Assembly: GCA_951406725.2 (NCBI GenBank)
Contig: OX597819.1
Coordinates: forward strand, 21,824,001 to 21,888,000
Source: Octopus vulgaris
Lineage: Eukaryota
Direction: 5' to 3'
DNA: 64,000 nucleotides
Shown here: in pieces, positions 3,480 to 60,886 of the stretch
Numbering within the stretch: position 1 is the first letter of the stretch
Layout: each line of letters starts with the position of its first letter
Notes under the pieces: model-generated
What the model was told of the DNA's origin: nothing
The model's input: only the letters and a program-made list of their open reading frames with translations
The model's database searches: none
Made by a program: the position numbers and the translations under genes

Positions 3480-5510
3480 CATGCAGCCTACGGTACAATG
3501 CTATTCGTTCTTTTCAGCTCTCTAATACTTTCCTAATTATTCCGGCCGTGCCAAGGAGGCAAACCTTTTGTAATAGTTCTACTGGGCACTCTATTCCAAT
3601 TTCCGTTATATTCCCCTTGATGCCTCCTGATACTGTACCTGAAGACACAGCAACAATTGCCACTATCTTCACCTTCTTCATTTTCTATAGCCGGGATATT
3701 TAGCACTTAAGAAAGTTTTATCTGTCTATCTTTCTGCATTCCTTATTGACTATTCGTGGGTCAAAGGGGAATGCAACTCAACCATATAGCATAAGGGATA
3801 TTGAACCCAATGCCCTGATGACAAAGGAATAACCTTTAAGTTTTACTCTCATAGCTGCCACATCTTGGCGATATCAATTCCCAGGTCACCAGATTTATCA
3901 ACCTGTTATCTTTATTTTATGATAATGTTGACTTCTTGATTACTGCCACGCCGATTGTTAGGCATTCTTTTTTAGTCCCTCCTAAATAATACTATATCCG
4001 ATCTTCGTTGCTTTAACAGCATTTCTGACTGGGAGTCAAACTCCCAGAGGATCTTTACTTTTCCCTTTTTCGCCCATTACGTTTTCCGGTGTATTTTGGT
4101 ACCAAGCACCCTTTATTTCATACCCATACTTCCGGCATAATAGCCAATGAAGGTTATGGGTTACCTTGTCATGGTTGCGCTTGTAATATTTCTGCGCAAG
4201 ACTTTCACAGGTACTAACAATATGAGTCACGCTTTCCACCTTCTTTCAATACATTCTGCAGAGGTTCGTTGCACTTGTGTGGTATATATTCCTTTTCACC
4301 GAGTTGGTATTCAATGCCTGGTCTTGAGCAGCGTTCATTATGTTTTCAGTCTTCTTTTTAAGGTTACACTTGCTGAGCCACCTCCATGAGGCTTTCAGAT
4401 CTTTTAAGGTTTTAGTTTCACGGTTGAACTGACCATGTAATTCCATGCGGAGTGGACTTTCTTCTCTCTCGTTAGCTATTCGTGACGGAAATTCCTTAGA
4501 ACTTTCGACTTAAATGTTGGCAAATCCTTCTGCATTAGCAGCATGCTATGACAGGTCCTCTTACGTCCTGTTTGCTGTTTAGCAGATATTCTGTTATATT
4601 TCTTCTTTCACTATCGCTGCACACCTCGACGCTAATCAGGCCACGTACACCTTTAAACCTCTTCATGTATAATTTGTGAACGTTCGCCTTGGTCAACCTC
4701 CTCTCGTGTCCATTTCTGAATGGGTGTACAGTAGCCGACTACAACAATAGCCCATATATTAATGGCGGTCACAAGGTTCCATGCGTTGAGTTTTGACTTC
4801 AAGAGAAAATTTGAGCCGTTTCAAATATGCAGTGGTGACCATGCCTTTCATTTATCGGTGCAAGATATTGTCCAGCTTCAGGACCCCAAAGTACTTGTAA
4901 ACATCATCATCTTAGTCTCCCATTTGCTTCCCGTTTGGCACTTCTATACTCCTACAATATGCTCTGTTCCTCCACTTGAAAGTGAGCACCGCACGCTTTA
5001 AGATCTGTACAGTCTCAAGCGGCCTCTCCGCTTCAGGATTCGTTTTTGCGAAGAGCTTTAAATAATCCATGAAGTGGAAGTGGTTTAGACAAGGTCCATT
5101 CTTCTTCGGTTCCAATTGCGTGTTGACTTTCCGTGGATCAACAGAGAATGAGATCAAGGCTATAAGAAATTACAAATGTGAACAAGAATCTCCCTGGAAG
5201 ATGGCACTTTTTAATGTTACCTCGACTAAGTGATAGTTGATACCGAAAAGACGTGTTTTTCAACTAGTTGTACTGTTCTTAATCAGTGCATACTCCTTCT
5301 CAGCTACTCCCCCTATGTTGAGTCTTTCCAGAATCTATACACAAGATTTTTGGTACCGTTTGCAGTTCCTTACAGCCTTGTCTATCACAAGGTGGTCCTT
5401 GGTGGCCTAGGCTCTTTTTTGGCATTCTTTTTGTTCTACTGAGAGCAGATTGATTTCCGCAAGGAACGTATATATTTTCCCTGCCAGGATGCCTATTATC
5501 ACTTTCCATA
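3480..5510 (-). mobile_element. Degenerate R4-like RLE LINE (second family), RT to RLE region
   Basis: Fragments: IFQGDS-like, HFHFMDYLKLFAK (HLLFMDDLKL), MELHGQF..SWRWL, AAQDQAL, CRMY..ESVTHIVSTC..RNHDKV..LHWLLC; many frameshifts and stops. Confidence 0.8.
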
Positions 5511-5564
5511 AGAGGTTAAAACTAAAATAGGTTAACTGTGTGTATATATCAATTCTATTTATTT

Positions 5565-5652
5565 GTGCAGCTGATGATAGCCCTGCATTTAAACTGATGA
5601 AATGAATGCATTGTTCGATTAAATGCAGTTCAATGAAACGGTCGTACTGCAT
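5565..5652 (+). ncRNA. Type I hammerhead ribozyme motif (intact core)
   Basis: Stem I UGCAG/CUGCA; CUGAUGA 5571-5577; stem II CUGCAUUUAA/UUAAAUGCAG; GAA; stem III ACG-GU-CGU; GUA site at 5646. Homologous to 48938-49026. Confidence 0.75.
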
Positions 5653-5659
5653 CACTTTA

Positions 5660-5673
5660 CTTATTTTCATTTT

Positions 5674-5720
<47 letters not shown>

Positions 5721-5754
5721 CATAAATACATATATATGTATATATATATATATC

Positions 5755-5786
<32 letters not shown>

Positions 5787-6612
5787 CATACATATATATA
5801 CATACACATATGTATATATACATACATATATATACATACACATATGTATATATACATACATACAGTTATATATATATATATATATATATACATACATATG
5901 GGGGTGGGTATCATTGTGTGTATGTTTGTCGACCACCACCACCTAACAATAGGTGGTGTTGTATCCCCATAATTTAGAATAATATTACTGTGGTTGATTC
6001 ATGTGACAAAAATTGTCCAACGTGGTGCCCCAGCATGGCCACAGTCTAATGAGAGAAACAAAAAAAAAATATATATATATATATATATGTATAAATATAT
6101 ATACAGGTAAATCAAGAGAAGAAAATAGGGAAATTAACAGCAGGCAATTAGACATACACAGTGAAAATATTAGATTAAAAATCCTGTGAAATTTTATCGA
6201 AAAGTTGGAGTAGAAATGAGCAGAGAGAGAGTCTAGAGAGACTCAGAAACGCGCATGCGTGCCCAGATATATATTTCTCAATTTCTTTGTTTTGTATAAA
6301 ATATTTGTCCTCGCTGTCTCTCTCTTTCTTTGCCACTCTTCCGTACTCTCTCACTTTATCTCCGTATCAATCTCAGTCTTTTGATTAATACATAGGAAAT
6401 CTAAAATATCTTAGCATATCAATCAAAATACCAATTCTGGAGATCGATGCTTAGCGCAGCCTTTCATCTACTTAACTCTAACTTATGTCAAATCTTAACA
6501 ATACGCTTACATTCTATTGTCCGTCGTTACTACGTTCATGCTTCGTCCATATATACTTTCTCATTTTCTTTCTCTTCCTCTCTCTCTCTCTCACTCTTTG
6601 TGTCTTTCGTTA

Positions 6613-13799: not shown

Positions 13800-14215
13800 A
13801 TACTCCAGACCCAATACACCAAAAATTCCGGATGAACTCACAAAACACATAGACCCCAAAATAATAAACTTATCTAAAAGAGAACTTGACGAAAATGAAA
13901 TGAAATGAAATGAACCTACTACTAAAAGGCCTCAAATTTACACCTACACCCACTCCAAACCTCATAGAACTAAAAACTGATATAGATAACTTCAGCCGCC
14001 ACCTCCGCCTCATGGAATTCTTTGAAAATAAAGAAACAGAAGATAACTCAATCATAAGAAAAAAATCCCATTTCACCCCTTACAAGGGAAGTGACAAACA
14101 CCTTGACGCATACATAGAGACAATATCCAAATTCACTCTCTACACACACAAATGCAAGCAGAGTCTCCGCAGAGGAGAAAAACAAGTATTTTATTATGAT
14201 CTAAGTGATATGATA
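13800..14215 (+). pseudogene. Penelope-like element fragment, region N-terminal to RT
   Basis: INLSKREL..E.NLLLKGLKFTPTP..ELKTDIDNFSRHLRLMEFF matches the LxKGLxFxPTP...FxRxLRLxEFF motif typical of PLE ORFs. Confidence 0.75.
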
Positions 14216-16760: not shown

Positions 16761-17128
16761 AACCCATATCAAAAATAAAACGCTTAACCCATCTAATGGA
16801 AGATGTAAGTCAGAATAAGGCAGAGAACACTGCAAAAAAAAACAATAACATAGAAATTACAGATTTACCTCCCCTTTACTGCAATATACATGAGTGAGCA
16901 ATTATCTCCCCTAGAAATATGTTTTCCCCCTCTAGCAGCTTAACTCTTTCAACTCTCAGTTTAATGAGAAATGCGAAACCGGTCTTCAATTACGTTGAAA
17001 GAACAAAACCTTATTTTGTACAAAATTGTATATCTTTATTAACATGGCTCTAATATAATCTTCAATCCTGTAAAATAAATACTCTGTGTACTTCATCTTT
17101 TCTATTTCTCTCCCTCCCTCCCCCTCTC

Positions 17129-17175
<47 letters not shown>

Positions 17176-17247
17176 ATAGTAAATAGGGTAATAAAAATAA
17201 ATTATTATTACCAGTGACCTAGTACAAAAGACGAATTAGTCAGTTAA

Positions 17248-17323
17248 TCCTGTACTGCAGTTTCATCTTTTTTTTTAGCAAATGAATAGAATTTATCTGC
17301 CAAGGCCAGAATTGTCAGCAGGA
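17248..17323 (-). ncRNA. Type I hammerhead motif, G8A core variant (dimer unit 1)
   Basis: UCCUG/CAGGA stem I; CUGACAA; long stem II; GAA; palindromic ACUGCAGU; GUA. Confidence 0.6.
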
Positions 17324-17674
17324 AGCCTTTGTAATACATACCGTGAGAAGCACGTGCAAATCTAACGATCTGTATACCCTAACTATTCAGACCAGTGCGC
17401 AGATGCAAATCATACCGGCGACAGAGAGGATGCCGGTAAAAATCTACGAGCAAATCTATCGAGCAATATTTAAACATAGTAAATAGGGTAATAGAAATAA
17501 ATTATTATTACCAGTGACCTAGCACAAAAGACGAATTAATCATTAGACTATATGTTATTCATATATAAATATATTAAAAGGCTTCCAAATAAAAAAAGCG
17601 AGTGCTAGATACACAAAAAGGGGATAAATTCATGAAATGGAATGTAAATCAAAAACGTTTACCAACTCAGCTAA

Positions 17675-17749
17675 TCCTGTACTGCAGTTTCATCTTTTTT
17701 TTAGCAAATGAATATAATTCATCTGCCAAGGCCCGAATCGTCAGCAGGA
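17675..17749 (-). ncRNA. Type I hammerhead ribozyme motif (intact core, dimer unit 2)
   Basis: UCCUG/CAGGA stem I; CUGACGA; stem II UUGGCAGAUGAAU/AUUCAUUUGCUAA; GAA; palindromic stem III ACUGCAGU; GUA site at 17680. Confidence 0.75.
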
Positions 17750-17849
17750 AGCCTTTGTAATACATACCGTTAGAAGCACGTGCAAATCTAACGATCTGTA
17801 TACCATGCGTTCTTGAGGTGATATAAACAAAAGACCACACATTACGATA

Positions 17850-17980
17850 AAAGTTTAGTCAACTATATAGTCGCCGGTACTCTGAAAGGTGAAAGATTTC
17901 CTCAACATCAGCTGCATTTGAACTCAGAACCTAACGGTAGGTGATTATATGCTGCTATAATTCACCAATTCTGCCATTCT
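17850..17980 (-). mobile_element. SINE family C, degenerate
   Basis: tctgaaaggtgaaag...catttgaactcagaac...aattctgcc resembles the reverse complement of 29006-29140. Confidence 0.5.
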
Positions 17981-18048
17981 ACTGTTTAACTCAGTCATGC
18001 CATTTTGTAGCTTTAGTGAATCTGCTCTTCTGCCTCCGTTTTATTAAT

Positions 18049-18213
18049 GAGATGAGTTTGATTAGACGCAGCTGTTTGAACTGTAGATGTTTGACGCGGC
18101 CGACTGAACATTGAGCCTTGTTTTGGTGACAGAATTTATTTGGCTCTGGGGGGCAAATGCGTGCATGCGCAGAAATATCCACGTGCAAAAATGGGTGAGA
18201 AATACAAAACGTA

Positions 18214-25862: not shown

Positions 25863-25869
25863 ATAATTA

Positions 25870-26263
25870 AATAAGGGTAGGAATTAAAACCAGTGGCCTA
25901 GCATATTAAAAAAAAAACAAAGATTAAAAATTATTTTACATACAAAATTTAGCGGACTGACCACTAAAAATGGACAGCCTATATGCTAGATATAGACGTC
26001 AAAATCGCCATTTTCCACGAAGAATGTGTTCTCAAGAAAAAACTCAACAAAAAAATCCATAATGTAAAAATAAGCAAGACAAATGAAAATATACGAAATA
26101 AAAAACGATTACCTATGTACTAATTAGTTTCACTTGTTAATATTTACGTATATGGATGCGTAAACATCTGCAAGATCGTCAGCATAGTCTGTCGTTTACG
26201 AAATACAATTTCCAGAACTAGATACAGAATGCTCGATCGAAATCCGAGCATGTATAACGTTCT

Positions 26264-26270
<7 letters not shown>
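25870..26270 (-). mobile_element. Hammerhead-bearing PLE-type terminal repeat
   Basis: Shares the aaggg..aatta..ccagtggcctagca end motif with 17185 and 62680; contains the hammerhead at 26113-26187; bounded by (TG)/(TA) repeats. Confidence 0.55.
26113..26187 (-). ncRNA. Type I hammerhead ribozyme motif (intact core)
   Basis: Stem I CUAUG/CAUAG; CUGACGA; stem II CUUG..AUGUUUACG/CGUAAAUAU..CAAG; GAA; palindromic stem III ACUAAUUAGU; GUA site at 26118. Confidence 0.75.
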
Positions 26271-29005: not shown

Positions 29006-29415
29006 GGCGGCGAGCTGGCAGAATCGTTAGCACGCCGGACGAAATGCTTAGCGGTATTTCGTCTACCGCTACGTTCTGAGTTCAAATTCCGTCGAGGTCA
29101 ATTTTACCTTACATCCTTTCGGGGTCGATAAATTAAGTACCAGTTACGCACTGGGGTCGATATAATCAACTTAATCCGTTTGTCTGTCGTTGTTTGTCCC
29201 TTCTGTGTTAGCCCCTTGTGGGTAATAAAGAAATCGGTATTTCGTCTGCGGCTACGTTCTGAGTTCAAATTCTGCCGATGTCTACTTTGTCTTAAATCCT
29301 TTCGGGGTCAATTAAATACGTACCAGTTATGCACTGGGGTTGATGTAATCGACTTAATCCCTTTGTCTGTCCTTGTTTGTCCCCTCTATGTTTAACCCCG
29401 TGGGCAATGAAGAAA
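29006..29415 (+). mobile_element. SINE family C (tRNA-like head plus Meta-domain-like core): full copy plus tandem 5'-truncated copy
   Basis: ggcggcgagctggcagaatcgttagc..gagttcaaattcc (box B)..catcctttcggggtcgataaattaagtaccag; second unit 29236-29415. Confidence 0.9.
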
Positions 29416-32084: not shown

Positions 32085-32960
32085 GGTTGGTTGTAAGAGG
32101 CAAAATTGATCCCCAAATGCAGAACCACCTACGTGGCAAAAAAACTACCGGCCAAGTGCATGCCAAAACTTAAGGTGTAAGATGTTTAAACCTCTTCCTC
32201 CAGGACCATTGTGAAACCAATATGATGATCACAGCAGAACAAGCAGCTGGGGAGAAGAGAGTCTGGTGATGTGCCGAGCAATTGTTAATCAACAAAACTG
32301 TGATGTCAGAGATGCAAGAGTATAAGAGGAACTAAGTTTCAACGTGACTAGACTAAAAGTAAGACTTTGACTCAGTTCCCCACTCATGGATGCTAGAAGC
32401 TCTCCATATTGCTAAAGTTCCAGTGAGAATAGTCAAAGCCATAGCTGACCTGACTTCATCGTGGGCCACCATCTTGTAATTAAATACAAAGAGGAACTGT
32501 TTTATCACCGATAAAATACAGTCTCGCACAGGCATATTCCAAGGGGACAGCCTCTCTGTGGTGTTGTTTATACTTCCTGTAAACCTCTTGTCATTCATGT
32601 CAAGGAAGTTTGAAGGTCATCTCACTGATTCACAAGGAAGCAGAAATATCGAAATTACACTCTGTTTCTTTGTGGATAACTTAAAACTTTATGCAAAGAA
32701 TATGCATGTGATGAAAAAGAGCCTTGGCCTATTTACAACATTCTCAAAGGATGTAGGGTTGGAATTTGGTCACGATAAATGTTGTTATATAGTTGGGAAA
32801 AGGGGGGAAAACAATAAAACAGACTAGTTACATCTCCGTCAGTGATTTGACTGTTTCTCCTGCATCTGACGAGGAATGTTTCAGGTATCAAGGGGTGGAT
32901 GAAAATATATCTTACAATGGTACCTGTAAGTCCAAACACTGTATATGAGAAATAATCTTA
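32085..32960 (+). pseudogene. R4-like LINE reverse transcriptase remnant
   Basis: EQAAG..CAEQLLINK..LD*K*DFDSVPHSWMLEAL..GIFQGDSLSVVLF..FFVDNLKLYAK..DVGLEFGHDKC; many stops. Confidence 0.85.
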
Positions 32961-32989: not shown

Positions 32990-33034
32990 CACACGCTGAT
33001 GAAAGGTAAACACCTTGAAACTCGGGTCCGTGTG
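32990..33034 (+). ncRNA. Compact type I hammerhead ribozyme (intact core)
   Basis: Stem I CACACG/CGUGUG; CUGAUGA; stem II AAGGU-AAAC-ACCUU; GAA; stem III AC-UCGG-GU; GUC site at 33028. Confidence 0.85.
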
Positions 33035-47191: not shown

Positions 47192-48655
47192 CGATTGCGG
47201 CCAAAATGTTCAGAACGGCATTGTTTTCGTCAGAAAAGTAGGTATAATTTTTTTACCAAAGTTGTTTTGTATTCTATAATTTTCACAGACAATAAATACG
47301 ATATTATGTTTTGAATTTGTTTACGTGACGGTTCATTTACTAAACACGCCGTAAGAATATCTGCAATGTATTTTGTTAATATAATGCCACTTATTCCGTT
47401 ACCAATTCGTCAGCAGATTATTAAGCTTCGAAAGAAGGATAATTTAAGTATTAGGTCTATTGCAAAGATTGTTAACAAGTGAAAAAGTGTTGTACACGGT
47501 ATTCTTAAGGTCTACGATGATTGTGATTCGTGTGAAGCAAGAAAGTTTACAGGTAGGCCAAGAAAAACGACCAAGAGAGAAGATCGTGCTATGGTAAGGT
47601 TGGTTAAAAAGGTTAGATTTAAAACTGCTGCTGCTGCTGCTGTTTCTCGGGAAATGAGCATTGTACTGAAGAAAACTTTATCTCGAAAAACTGTGTCTCG
47701 TCGTTTAGTTGAACATGACCTACAAGCAAGAGCACCTGCAGTGAAGCCACTGATCATCTCCAAGAATAAAAAGTGTCGTCTTACCTTTGCAACCGAACAT
47801 GTGTTGTGGTCTCAAGAAAAATGGCAAACGGTGCATTTCAGTGATGAATTTAAGTCTGTTATTTGGCTCAGATGGGAAAATTGCCTTACGACTAATGTTA
47901 ACTTCCGTGGAGGAGGTGTCATGGTTTCGGGGATGATATCTGGAGATGGTGTGGGCCCTTTGGTGCGATTACATGGAAAGGTAAATGCAGGAGATTATAA
48001 ACAACTTGTAAAAGATCATATCTTGCCTGTGCTGAGAAATTCAACTAAGCGACCACCCATATTCATGCAGGACAATGACCCATGTCACAAGGCTAAGGCG
48101 GTCATGAACTTCCTCAAGGCTGAAAAGGTTATCATTATGGATTGGCTTGCTCAAAGCCCAGATCTCAATCCTATTGAAAACATGTGCTGGAGTCGGAAAG
48201 ACAACATCCAGGTCCCCTGGAGAACGTTCGAAAGCCAGAAATCCTAAAACAACCGAGCAATTATGGAATGCCCTTCAGGAAGAATGGAATAAGATCACCC
48301 AGCAAGAAATTGAAAATTTAATTTCCCCATGCTGTCGAAGATGTCAAAGTTTGATTGAAGCTAAAGGGCTTCACACTAAATATGAAATAATTCCAGAATT
48401 CTCAGTCATTTTTGATTATTTTGTTATTTTTTCAACCGTTCTGCTCATTTTGTCCAACATGGGTTTTGCAGTAAATCACTATATCATCCATAACTTTTGT
48501 ATTATCCAGTCCTATTACACCGAAATCTCAGACAATACCAATTAATATTGCATTTATTGTCTGTTAAATTATAGAATATAAAACAACCTTAATAAAAACT
48601 TATGCCTACTTTTCTGACGAAAACAATGCCGTTCTGAACATTTTGGCCGCAACTA
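47192..48655 (+). mobile_element. Full-length degenerate Tc1 (DD34E) transposon with ~115-bp TIRs
   Basis: TIRs ttgcggccaaaatgttcagaacggcattgttttcgtcagaaaagtagg... (47192-47307 / 48543-48655), TA flanks. Confidence 0.93.
47384..48385 (+). pseudogene. Tc1 transposase pseudogene
   Basis: ATG 47384, in-frame TGA 47480; GRPRKTT, HFSDE, QDNDPCH, SPDLNPIEN with 34 residues between D and E; a deletion after FSDE and a frameshifting insert near 48190. Confidence 0.9.
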
Positions 48656-48690: not shown

Positions 48691-48862
<172 letters not shown>

Positions 48863-49137
48863 TCAGATGAATATGGTACTTGAGTTGAGGCACCAGAATT
48901 ATGCTTTAATTTTAATTTAATTAAATTCTATGTCTTTGTGCAGCTGAGGATTGCTCTGCATTTTAATTTGATGTAATGATTGCATTGTTCAATTACTTGG
49001 AGTTGCAAGAAACGATCGTACTGCATTACCTCTGGATATCTTGTTGCTTATTTTGATTTTAATCACCTAACTTGAAATTGTATGGATAATACAGTACTAA
49101 ATTCTGGTACCTCAACTTAAGTGCCATATTAATCTGA
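48863..49137 (+). mobile_element. Hammerhead-containing PLE-type repeat with 38-bp inverted ends
   Basis: tcagatgaatatggtacttgagttgaggcaccagaatt (48863-48900) vs aattctggtacctcaacttaagtgccatattaatctga (49100-49137). Confidence 0.7.
48938..49026 (+). ncRNA. Type I hammerhead ribozyme motif (intact core)
   Basis: Stem I GUGCAG/CUGCAU; CUGAGGA 48944-48950; stem II UUGC/GCAA base; GAA; palindromic stem III ACGAUCGU; GUA site at 49020. Confidence 0.8.
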
Positions 49138-49147
49138 CTATATATAA

Positions 49148-50366
49148 ACTTAGATAAACTTAGATATGTTTCGACCAAAGATTGGTCCAGGCCATGTCTA
49201 ACTTAATAGCACCACCTGATAGGATTATTCGAATCCTGTTTAAGTCAAGTTTTGTTTAAGTCAAGTTTTGTTTAAGTCAAGTTTTGTTTAAGTCAAGCTT
49301 TGTTCAAGTAGTGAGTTCTTGTTGGGTGAGTTGTATCCAGTTTTGTTCAAGTAGTGAGTTCTTGTTGGGTGAGTTGTATCCAATTATGGGTGGCTTATCT
49401 GGTATTCTTTGAAGGAATCTATCCAGACTCTGTTTAAAGTTGATGGGATCCTTTCCCTCTTTGATCTCCCTCGGGACAATGTTAAATAGGGCAGGGCCTG
49501 TTGAGGAAAAGAAATTATGTTGCAGTGTACATGTATGTTGTGATCTTGAATTTGGCAGGGGACGTATAGCCCGTGGTCCAAGTCTTGGATGAACCTTGAA
49601 GCTAATGTTTAGGTCGTTTGGGCAAAGTTGGCGGTATATTTTCCACATCGTACAAATGATGTACCGCTCACGGCGACGCTGGAGGGAGTAAAGTTTCAAG
49701 GCTTTAAGGCGATCCCAATAATCGAGAGCAGCCATGCCTTCAATTTGTTTAGTGAGAGCCCTCTGGGGTGACTCAATTCTGGAGATGTTTTGTCTTGTGT
49801 GAGGAGACCACAGTGGGCAGCAGTATTCAAGGTGTGGCCGTACAAAGGAGGAAAAAAGTGGTATGATGACACCTTGTTCTCTGGACCAGAAAGTTCTTAA
49901 GATCCAGGAACTCATCCTACGAGCTATATCGACCTTCTTGTCGATGTGTGCACTCCAACTGAGATCATCATCAACAATTACACCCAGGTCTCTGATATTG
50001 TTAGAGGCTGTGAGCGGTTCACCTGAAGGAAGAGAGTATGGTTGTTTTAGTGAGGAATTTCTTCCAAAATGCATCAGCTCAAATTTTCCCTCATTCAGTT
50101 GCATTTTGTTTCTGTCTGCCCATTGACTCACAGCATATAGATCAGACTGGAGTTGAGTTCGGTTTGCTTCTTCATTGACGATTTGCTGGAGCTTAGTGTC
50201 ATCAGCGAATATTTTCACTTTGCAGTAATGTACGACACTGGAAAGGTCGTTTACGTAAATTATGAAGAGTAGCGGAGCCAAAACAGTTCCCTGGGGAACA
50301 CCGCTGGTGAGTTTTGCCGGGTTTGAGTGGACTCCATCAGCTACAACATGTTGTGTTCTATTCGCC
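49148..50366 (-). mobile_element. 5'-truncated CR1-like LINE, young (open RT C-terminal frame 49304..50368)
   Basis: SGVPQGTVLAPLLF, FADDTKL, RDLGVIVD, VRPHLEYCCPLWSPH, LYSLQRRRERY; uninterrupted 354 aa; 3' UTR with 16-bp and 43-bp-period repeats and a tctaagttta tail; inserted in (TA)n. Confidence 0.92.
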
Positions 50367-50382
50367 ATATATATACATATAT

Positions 50383-50434
<52 letters not shown>

Positions 50435-51098
50435 TGGGTATGAGTTTGTCTCTATATCTTAGCGATTCAGCATAACAGACCGATAAAATATGTAACAGAG
50501 TTTTCAAATAAAAGTACCGCATCGGTTTTTCCTCTGAACTTTTCAAGGTGGTGCTCCAGCTTAGCCGCAGTCGAATAACTGAAACAAGTAAAACTTTAGG
50601 TTATCTATTCCAAATCGATTCTAACACCAAGTGGTAATTAATTCATATCTTATTCATCAGAAGCGTTCATGTTTGTAAATCCCTCTTTTGTATAATTTGC
50701 TAGTTTTATTTTCTATCCTTCACAGTTCCTACAGATTACAGAATGGTTATAAATTGGCTCCTTAAGATTATTTTTCTTGATGCAAACCTAAAATTCCTTT
50801 ATCCGAAATTGAAAATCATTTTTCAACTACACATCCTTTTAACTATGTTTTTGACTTAATCTCAGTTCCTGTTATCTAAATAATAATAAAAAAAGAGTAT
50901 GGTCAATGAAATATATTTGAGTACATTTCCTCCTTGTTTAGTTTTTTCTGTTCAAATTTTGACACGAGGCCAGCGATTTTGAGGTTGTGGCGAGATCAAC
51001 CTCGGGAGAATTTGAAATCAAAACGTTAAGTATTTTGTCTGACGCGTTATTCATTCTGCCAAGTCAACATTTTCTCATCTAACTAAACAAAGATGGAA

Positions 51099-54813: not shown

Positions 54814-56354
<1,541 letters not shown>

Positions 56355-60656: not shown

Positions 60657-60886
60657 ATTTCTTTATTACCCACAAGGGGCTAAACATAGAGGAGACAAAC
60701 ATGGACAGCCATAGGTATTAAGTCGATTATATCGACCCCAGTGCTTAACTGGTACTTAATTTATCGACCCCAAAAGGATGAAAGGCAAAGTCGACCTCGG
60801 CAGAATTTGAACTCACAACGTAACGGCAGCCGAAATACCGCTAAGCATTTCGCCCGACGTGCTAACGATTCTGCTAGCTCGCCGCC
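60657..60886 (-). mobile_element. SINE family C, full length
   Basis: Reverse complement of the 29006-type sequence. Confidence 0.9.

Follow-up and report, generated by a model that had tools for sequence, protein, structure and literature searches.

Does a pair of hammerhead motifs within a short tandem repeat mark a retrozyme that still releases a small RNA, or an element that has decayed beyond doing so? The question is raised by positions 17171-17805 of the window (by which we mean the whole 64-kb stretch of DNA analysed here), where the original prediction saw a partly decayed retrozyme or Penelope pLTR dimer. Our analysis supports that proposal, and a 2026 preprint argues that its two alternatives are the same thing (bioRxiv 10.64898/2026.07.22.740005, accessible part). 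We consider it probable that this interval is, on the minus strand, a single decayed insertion from a repeat family that is dispersed and non-coding, carries hammerheads and has a unit of about 427 nt, and that it is a non-autonomous Penelope-type element equivalent to a non-LTR retrozyme. The surrounding window is AT-rich animal-type DNA (30-43% GC), dense in microsatellites and transposon relics. Its SINE and microsatellite features point, in our judgement, to an octopus as host.

Two hammerheads, one with an altered core

Motif search and a type I descriptor both recover the two minus-strand hammerheads that had been placed at 17675-17749 and 17248-17323. The letters agree with an intact CUGACGA upstream, a G8A change downstream and a shared palindromic stem III, and the predicted GUA cuts at 17680 and 17253 do lie 427 nt apart. 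Stems I and III are the same in both copies. In the upstream copy, stem I (UCCUG/CAGGA) pairs 17749-17745 with 17679-17675, and four further pairs extend it to 17753/17669; stem III consists of 2 bp, A-U and C-G, closing UGCA within the palindrome ACUGCAGU, and the cleavage triplet is GUA. Stem II of both hammerheads opens with U·U, not with the usual G10.1-C11.1. Two basal stem II pairs follow in the intact copy and three in the G8A copy, and beyond them lie an internal loop and a 13-bp hairpin.

The substitution at 17313 is a CpG-type transition. We found no paper on G8A itself, so its effect is judged from two neighbouring cases: G8C abolishes cleavage in a Penelope hammerhead (PMC11167929, available text), and A8 is reported together with U3, not C3, in the accessible part of PMC4209133. 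By analogy, the downstream core is presumed inactive.

The type I descriptor, loosened so as to admit G8A, finds six sites in the window; 100 block shuffles gave 0.03 on average and never more than 1. A simpler hammerhead pattern finds five, where 0.23 would be expected. Hammerhead motifs are more numerous than chance would give, yet they are not rare in this window. Rfam returns no hit at gathering score across the window, and at E up to 10 on 17100-17900 it returns 17 weak hits, almost all of which fall on the (TA)n tract and none of which is to a hammerhead. With no Rfam hammerhead hit, the identification rests on the core consensus, on folding and on variant letters in relatives, such as a sister variant in one putative RNA run (X9) that keeps stem III with other letters and has a GUC triplet.

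Layout of the insertion

Read in the RNA sense, the segments of the locus (Table 1) run B'-D-A'-C-B-(127-nt deletion)-A-(TA)20. This order corresponds to about 1.8 turns of a cyclic unit C-B-D-A, minus 127 nt, with about 1.5 units remaining. The two direct-repeat units originally described are therefore real as a repeat but unequal as units. Positions 17240-17378 match 17667-17804 with six mismatches and one gap in 139 at a spacing of 427, whereas 17171-17242 match 17471-17542 with three mismatches in 72 at a spacing of 300, and from these spacings it follows that the downstream copy lacks 127 nt. Divergence between the two copies at the locus is about 5%.

Table 1. Features of the hammerhead-bearing insertion and its immediate flanks (window coordinates)
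Feature	Position	Strand	Remarks
(TA)20 microsatellite	17133..17172	.	Adjoins the 3' end of the element; probable target site
Segment A	17171..17242	-	3'-terminal part of the insertion; from self-comparison; high depth in DNA-type runs
Deletion junction	17240..17242	-	Deletion of 127 nt, with loss of segment D; microhomology of 3 nt (TCA); immediately 3' of the downstream hammerhead
Segment B, downstream copy	17240..17378	-	Hammerhead-bearing repeat
Downstream type I hammerhead	17248..17323	-	Core CUGACAA, A at 17313 (G8A); predicted cut after 17253
Full turn of the 427-nt unit	17253..17679	-	Predicted monomer between cut sites
Segment C	17379..17465	-	Once at the locus; junctions to A' and B recur in diverged contigs
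Segment A'	17466..17542	-	Internal copy of A
Segment D	17543..17666	-	Once at the locus; deleted from the downstream copy
Segment B'	17667..17804	-	Upstream, 5'-truncated copy of B
Upstream type I hammerhead	17675..17749	-	Intact core CUGACGA (17744-17738), GAAA (17691-17688); predicted cut after 17680
5' boundary of the insertion (probable)	17805..17806	.	Repeat identity stops at 17804; organism C contig

The interval between the predicted cuts is 34% GC, similar to the window average. As had been claimed, it contains no ORF: stop-free frames reach at most 66 codons, whether the monomer is treated as linear or circular, and ATG-started frames at most 42 codons. Six-frame translation of segments C, D and A reveals no coding remnant, and the ORF survey finds no RT/GIY-YIG ORF between the repeats at 17171-17805.

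At the 5' side, a 957-nt contig from organism C, present at single-copy depth, aligns on 17806-18210 while its first 523 letters have no place on the element, a layout that would fit an empty site. No target-site duplication is readable beside (TA)20. Other copies of the family are longer by about 14 letters at 17335 and 17761, so that both B copies of the locus represent a shorter variant. Outside the element by 70 nt, 17873-17944 is a fragment of a far commoner repeat (summed depth above 200,000 in the DNA-type runs), related to pieces at about 29060-29280 and 60790-60830. This repeat is presumably SINE-like.

A dispersed family with a cyclic, ORF-less unit

Part of the sequence is present in 20 of the 24 listed sequencing runs (eight studies, four organisms), with at most 23% of its words in any one of them. 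Contigs of four of the 24 runs were aligned to 17173-18210: X1 (organism A) and X6 (organism C) are DNA-type runs, while X9 and X18 are putative RNA, none of the listed runs being on record as RNA. The missing cover of X9 and X18 on the unique flank and their depth profile count neither for nor against expression. The contigs aligned number 798 in X1 and 796 in X6, mostly 90-95% alike, counts that include the separate repeat at 17873-17944. Across the element, depth sums to 125-54,803 in X1 and 641-115,240 in X6, against 71.5 and 50.5 respectively in unique flank, figures that are not copy numbers. The family to which the element belongs is dispersed and multi-copy, and occurs in at least two organisms (A and C).

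Is the cyclic arrangement peculiar to this locus? Junctions and joints were drawn from 32 of 1,804 listed records, and a junction was counted as bridged when at least 31 letters lay on each side. Within this sample, C/B is bridged by at least four records from all four runs, B'/D by at least two, D/A' by at least four, and A'/C by at least three, the last all from the putative RNA runs X9 and X18. Two DNA-run records also cross A'/C, though the shorter arm covers just 19 letters in one and 28 in the other. The A'/C contigs carry 4, 5 and 18 other letters, and depth across this junction is about 5,000-5,800, equal to that of C. One 433-nt contig makes a full turn, through D, an unaligned part, C, A and D. 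Because all four junctions are bridged by diverged contigs, many copies are without an ORF, and the ORF-less cyclic unit is a property of the family and no accident of the locus. Two outcomes that the original prediction had listed as counting against it were a duplication unique to this locus and homologues always linked to an RT/GIY-YIG ORF; neither is the case, as the sequence recurs in contigs of four runs and many of these join A to C with no ORF between.

In all four runs the highest depth falls in the bin 17523-17557 (A'/D), exceeding that of C and B several-fold or more. Such polarity is what 5' truncation combined with a fixed 3' end would produce, and it suggests an excess of 3'-end fragments over whole units. 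Neither a hammerhead pattern nor a segment A pattern found a match when metagenomes were scanned. Among viral contigs there were five pattern matches, which we take as chance since their similarity to the element does not go beyond 15 nt.

Can the locus release a 427-nt RNA?

Folded alone, the upstream motif takes an inactive shape in which CUG of the core pairs with CAG of its own palindrome. In equilibrium terms, which ignore co-transcriptional folding and proteins, the active single fold costs 7.5 kcal/mol locally for the upstream motif (13.1 kcal/mol in the full transcript) and 6.6 for the downstream motif. For the 634-nt transcript the price is 25.6 kcal/mol with two single folds and 22.5 with the double hammerhead, only 3 less. 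When this transcript is folded whole, all hammerhead stem I and III helices have a probability near 0. The 427-nt monomer is 59% paired, equal to 60 shuffles, with an energy z of about -2.0 to -2.3, figures that describe a decayed copy.

Short palindromic stems III act as dimers (PMC4209133 and PMC6765202, available parts). Here the palindrome duplex is worth -11.1 kcal/mol, and cofolding of both motifs gives an inter-copy stem III with swapped stem I. Judging from the topology, each core in such a dimer would cut its partner's site, and G8A would for that reason block the upstream cut (17680). In the dimer fold the intact upstream core could still cut 17253, and 17680 could be cleaved only via the dead core or a weak single fold. 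As one of the two ribozymes is broken, release of a 427-nt RNA from this locus would be inefficient, and on this model we regard it as possible but unlikely. The headline claim of the original prediction, that the locus produces a roughly 427-nt RNA, finds no support, given the G8A core and the disfavoured active folds. Reads spanning the cleavage-site junction would not be diagnostic at the family level, because re-ligation restores a sequence that is present in tandem DNA.

As to transcription, an A-box-like 12-mer at 17673-17662 (-), 6 nt past the upstream cut, was considered as a Pol III promoter and rejected, there being no B box and T runs following at once; 27 of 2,000 simulations yield such a 12-mer, which is probably there by chance. 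ARAGORN finds no tRNA at the element.

Inversion joints near the cut site

Three of the eight joints listed (from 32 of 1,804 records) change strand, and each has one end at 17670, 17679 or 17683, the predicted cut lying at 17680/17679. All three of these opposite-strand joints thus have an end within 9 nt of the cut site, for which a naive uniform model gives about 0.001. One is common to organisms A and C, and the single opposite-strand joint for which the first piece is listed makes a head-to-head arrangement, as is usual for Penelope elements.

Such joints raise the possibility that genomic copies record ribozyme action in vivo: cut RNA serving as template would give cDNAs that end at the cut site, and head-to-head inversions, while circular or uncut RNA would give copies of more than unit length. 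We hold this only tentatively, and would sooner bet against it. The clustering comprises three events at most, and the palindrome at 17681-17688 may itself cause switching. In addition, subfamilies diverge at the cut site, so that alignments tend to stop there, and a drop in depth across it is present in X6 and absent in X1. The role of the hammerhead in Penelope retrotransposition is described as unclear (PMC8557442) or not detected (PMC11167929) in the accessible portions of these papers. With its hundreds of truncated copies, the family lends itself to a simple test of whether insertions end where the ribozyme cuts; were 5' ends to pile up there genome-wide, this would amount to direct evidence for hammerhead cleavage as a factor that shapes Penelope-type retrotransposition.

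Comparison with known elements

According to the available text of PMC7229834, metazoan non-LTR retrozymes are non-coding, low-GC units of 150-450 bp arranged head-to-tail with one type I hammerhead each, as here. Among the closest systems are mussel repeats of 350-390 bp and the axolotl element Rtz_353/HHR_Amex2, which shares a 2-bp stem III with a tetraloop and U·U at the base of stem II; HHR_Amex2 cleaves weakly alone and better as a dimer (same source). Unlike the metazoan retrozymes described there, the present element has about 1.5 units, one core with G8A, a long and interrupted stem II and a monomer that is not strongly self-paired. The literature portions available to us characterise retrozymes by a GC content under 45-50%, dimer-to-multimer arrays, a self-paired monomer, no PBS/PPT and a long target-site duplication when one is present. 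What we find is a type I hammerhead, a 427-nt head-to-tail unit that is non-coding with 34% GC, and a dispersed multi-copy family. For Li (2026), an active retrozyme has two consecutive complete hammerheads; G8A at 17313 breaks one of the pair, and for this reason we file the locus as a decayed copy, not as an active retrozyme.

The Penelope-derived non-autonomous elements of Li, Clavereau and Pollet (2026) are likewise ORF-less hammerhead repeats, which co-occur with Penelope-like elements, mostly as monomers and short arrays; in the accessible part of that work the sample consists of vertebrates, three insects and a coral. EN+ Penelope pLTR hammerheads (PMC4209133, PMC11167929 and PMC8557442, available parts) share with our element a palindromic short stem III, partial tandem arrangement and 5' truncation, along with inverted copies, an AT-rich or (TA)n target and a 3' end downstream of the ribozyme. 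In contrast to them, our element has no RT/GIY-YIG ORF, and its hammerheads lack the extra nucleotide and the G10.1-C11.1 pair of the minimal Penelope consensus.

Penelope-like elements typically show partial tandems, head-to-head inversions and microsatellite targets (PMC8557442 and PMC3846280, accessible text), and Poseidon insertions have their 3' end downstream of the hammerhead in an AT-rich target (PMC11167929, available part). A partial tandem with 5' truncation and a fixed 3' end is seen here in the layout and in the depth polarity, and the same polarity recurs in a relative at 25863-26266. Inverted 5'-truncated copies occur among the other family copies (three of the eight listed joints), with none at the locus itself. 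The target is (TA)20 here, and microsatellites flank 25863-26266, an agreement that comprises two loci in a microsatellite-rich window. An optional tail of 30-40 bp may also be borne by Penelope-type insertions, as far as the accessible literature goes; the loose contig ends listed for the family (24 of 177) give no clear sign of one either way.

In listings of the openly readable literature, our search on retrozymes or hammerheads in octopus or other cephalopods found no such family, which may nonetheless be on record elsewhere, for instance in subscription papers or repeat libraries. Two octopus repeat papers name Penelope families and, in the accessible main text, make no mention of a ribozyme. 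A cephalopod-type example of the link between retrozymes and Penelope thus appears to be unreported, and at the family level our case would add one to a link tested mainly in vertebrates (bioRxiv 10.64898/2026.07.22.740005, accessible part). At the level of the locus it matters little, this being a fossil copy in a window where hammerhead-like motifs are common (six in 64 kb).

Relatives within the window

A solo relative lies at 25863-26266 (-), between two microsatellites, and its hammerhead at 26182-26118 has U·U and a palindromic loop. A 15-nt motif of segment A is common to this relative (at 25889), where it matches at 14 of 15 positions and again lies 3' of the hammerhead; none of 200 simulated windows matches so well. 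Segment B aligns to the relative above all 300 shuffles. Segments A, C and D, each taken whole, give no alignment to it above shuffles, and since only B aligns whole the kinship is distant.

We found no sequence link within the window between the element and an autonomous Penelope partner. A Penelope-like ORF relic does lie at 13907-14110 (region 13850-14190, +), an N-terminal piece with 53% identity, across 74 aa, to an RT protein of 764 aa in which we take a zinc-finger linker and GIY-YIG motifs to be recognisable. This relic was rejected as part of the element, being on the opposite strand and showing no DNA similarity to it in a self-search of 16900-18100 against the whole window. The ESM Atlas gave no usable match for the relic, and tblastn with the 764-aa protein finds nothing near 17171-17805 at E up to 10.

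Alternative explanations

Could the locus nevertheless be an active retrozyme that is transcribed, is cut at both sites and builds up a 427-nt RNA in linear or circular form? In that case the upstream core, being intact, would cut twice, at 17253 through the dimer fold and at 17680 through the single fold, with RtcB-type ligation to follow, a course of events we judge improbable. Its strengths are that one core is intact, that identical stems I and III allow strand swapping, as the palindrome duplex (-11.1 kcal/mol) and the cofold with inter-copy stem III and swapped stem I illustrate, and that RtcB circularises retrozyme monomers in vitro (PMC7229834, available text). Against these stand the downstream G8A, read in the light of G8C and of A8 going with U3, not C3 (PMC11167929 and PMC4209133, accessible parts), the cost of the single active fold (7.5 kcal/mol locally and 13.1 in the full transcript), the stem II pair lost from the upstream copy and a promoter search that yielded just an A-box-like 12-mer without a B box. 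Moreover, eight of nine predicted Xenopus dimers showed no cleavage in vitro (bioRxiv 10.64898/2026.07.22.740005, accessible part).

A plain partial tandem of two 5'-truncated pLTRs from an autonomous Penelope-like element, with A'/C as a one-off truncation point, would account for the tandem arrangement, the 5' truncation, the head-to-head inversions and the (TA)n target, all Penelope features in the literature available; it would also suit the position of the 3' end, given that Poseidon insertions end 3' of the hammerhead too (PMC11167929, accessible part), and the presence of a Penelope-like ORF relic 3 kb away. This reading, which we think unlikely though a little less so than an active locus, is opposed by the recurrence of A'/C in contigs with 4, 5 and 18 other letters at a depth (about 5,000-5,800) equal to that of C, by the tblastn search, in which the 764-aa protein has no match near the element at E up to 10, and by the relic itself, which is on the opposite strand and not joined to the element. 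That the motif arose by chance in a local duplication, or that the assembly is at fault, is scarcely credible: the missing Rfam hit, the non-canonical stem II and a repeat-rich genome could be cited for it, but the six descriptor sites against 0.03 in shuffles, the 5% divergence between copies, the hundreds of diverged contigs in two organisms and a variant that keeps stem III pairing largely refute it.

A possible course of insertion and decay

If the locus is a decayed non-autonomous Penelope-type insertion, as we prefer, its layout could have arisen as follows. In the ancestral RNA, the short palindromic stem III would have favoured a double hammerhead in which each core cut its partner's site. 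A Penelope-like RT/GIY-YIG protein, supplied in trans, would have nicked the (TA)n tract, and reverse transcription of the family RNA would have started at a fixed point where segment A ends, about 210 nt 3' of the cut site. The RT would then have run for about 1.8 units and halted in the second B copy; since two cut sites were passed on the way, its template would have been circular or an uncleaved multimer. Afterwards the copies would have diverged by about 5%, the downstream copy losing 127 nt and a CpG transition turning its G8 into A.

Other hammerhead-like motifs in the window

Another family is represented on the plus strand by two hammerhead-like motifs, at 5571-5646 and 48944-49020, that are 82% alike over 106 nt. 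Both have a long stem II and a short stem III; the former ends 31 nt ahead of a (TA)n tract, and the latter is surrounded by an inverted repeat of about 47 nt (85%) at 48854-48900 and 49100-49146. Decayed transposon ORFs at 47483-48545, 49304-50458, 1031-2013 and 55247-56140 represent a transposase of the Tc1 type, an RT ORF and, next to (TTA)n tracts, a pair of related LINE 3' parts. A compact hammerhead-like motif at 32996-33028 (+), with a 5-bp stem II and a 6-bp stem I, lies about 170 nt past an RT fragment at 32480-32824 (RVT_1, E 3e-6).
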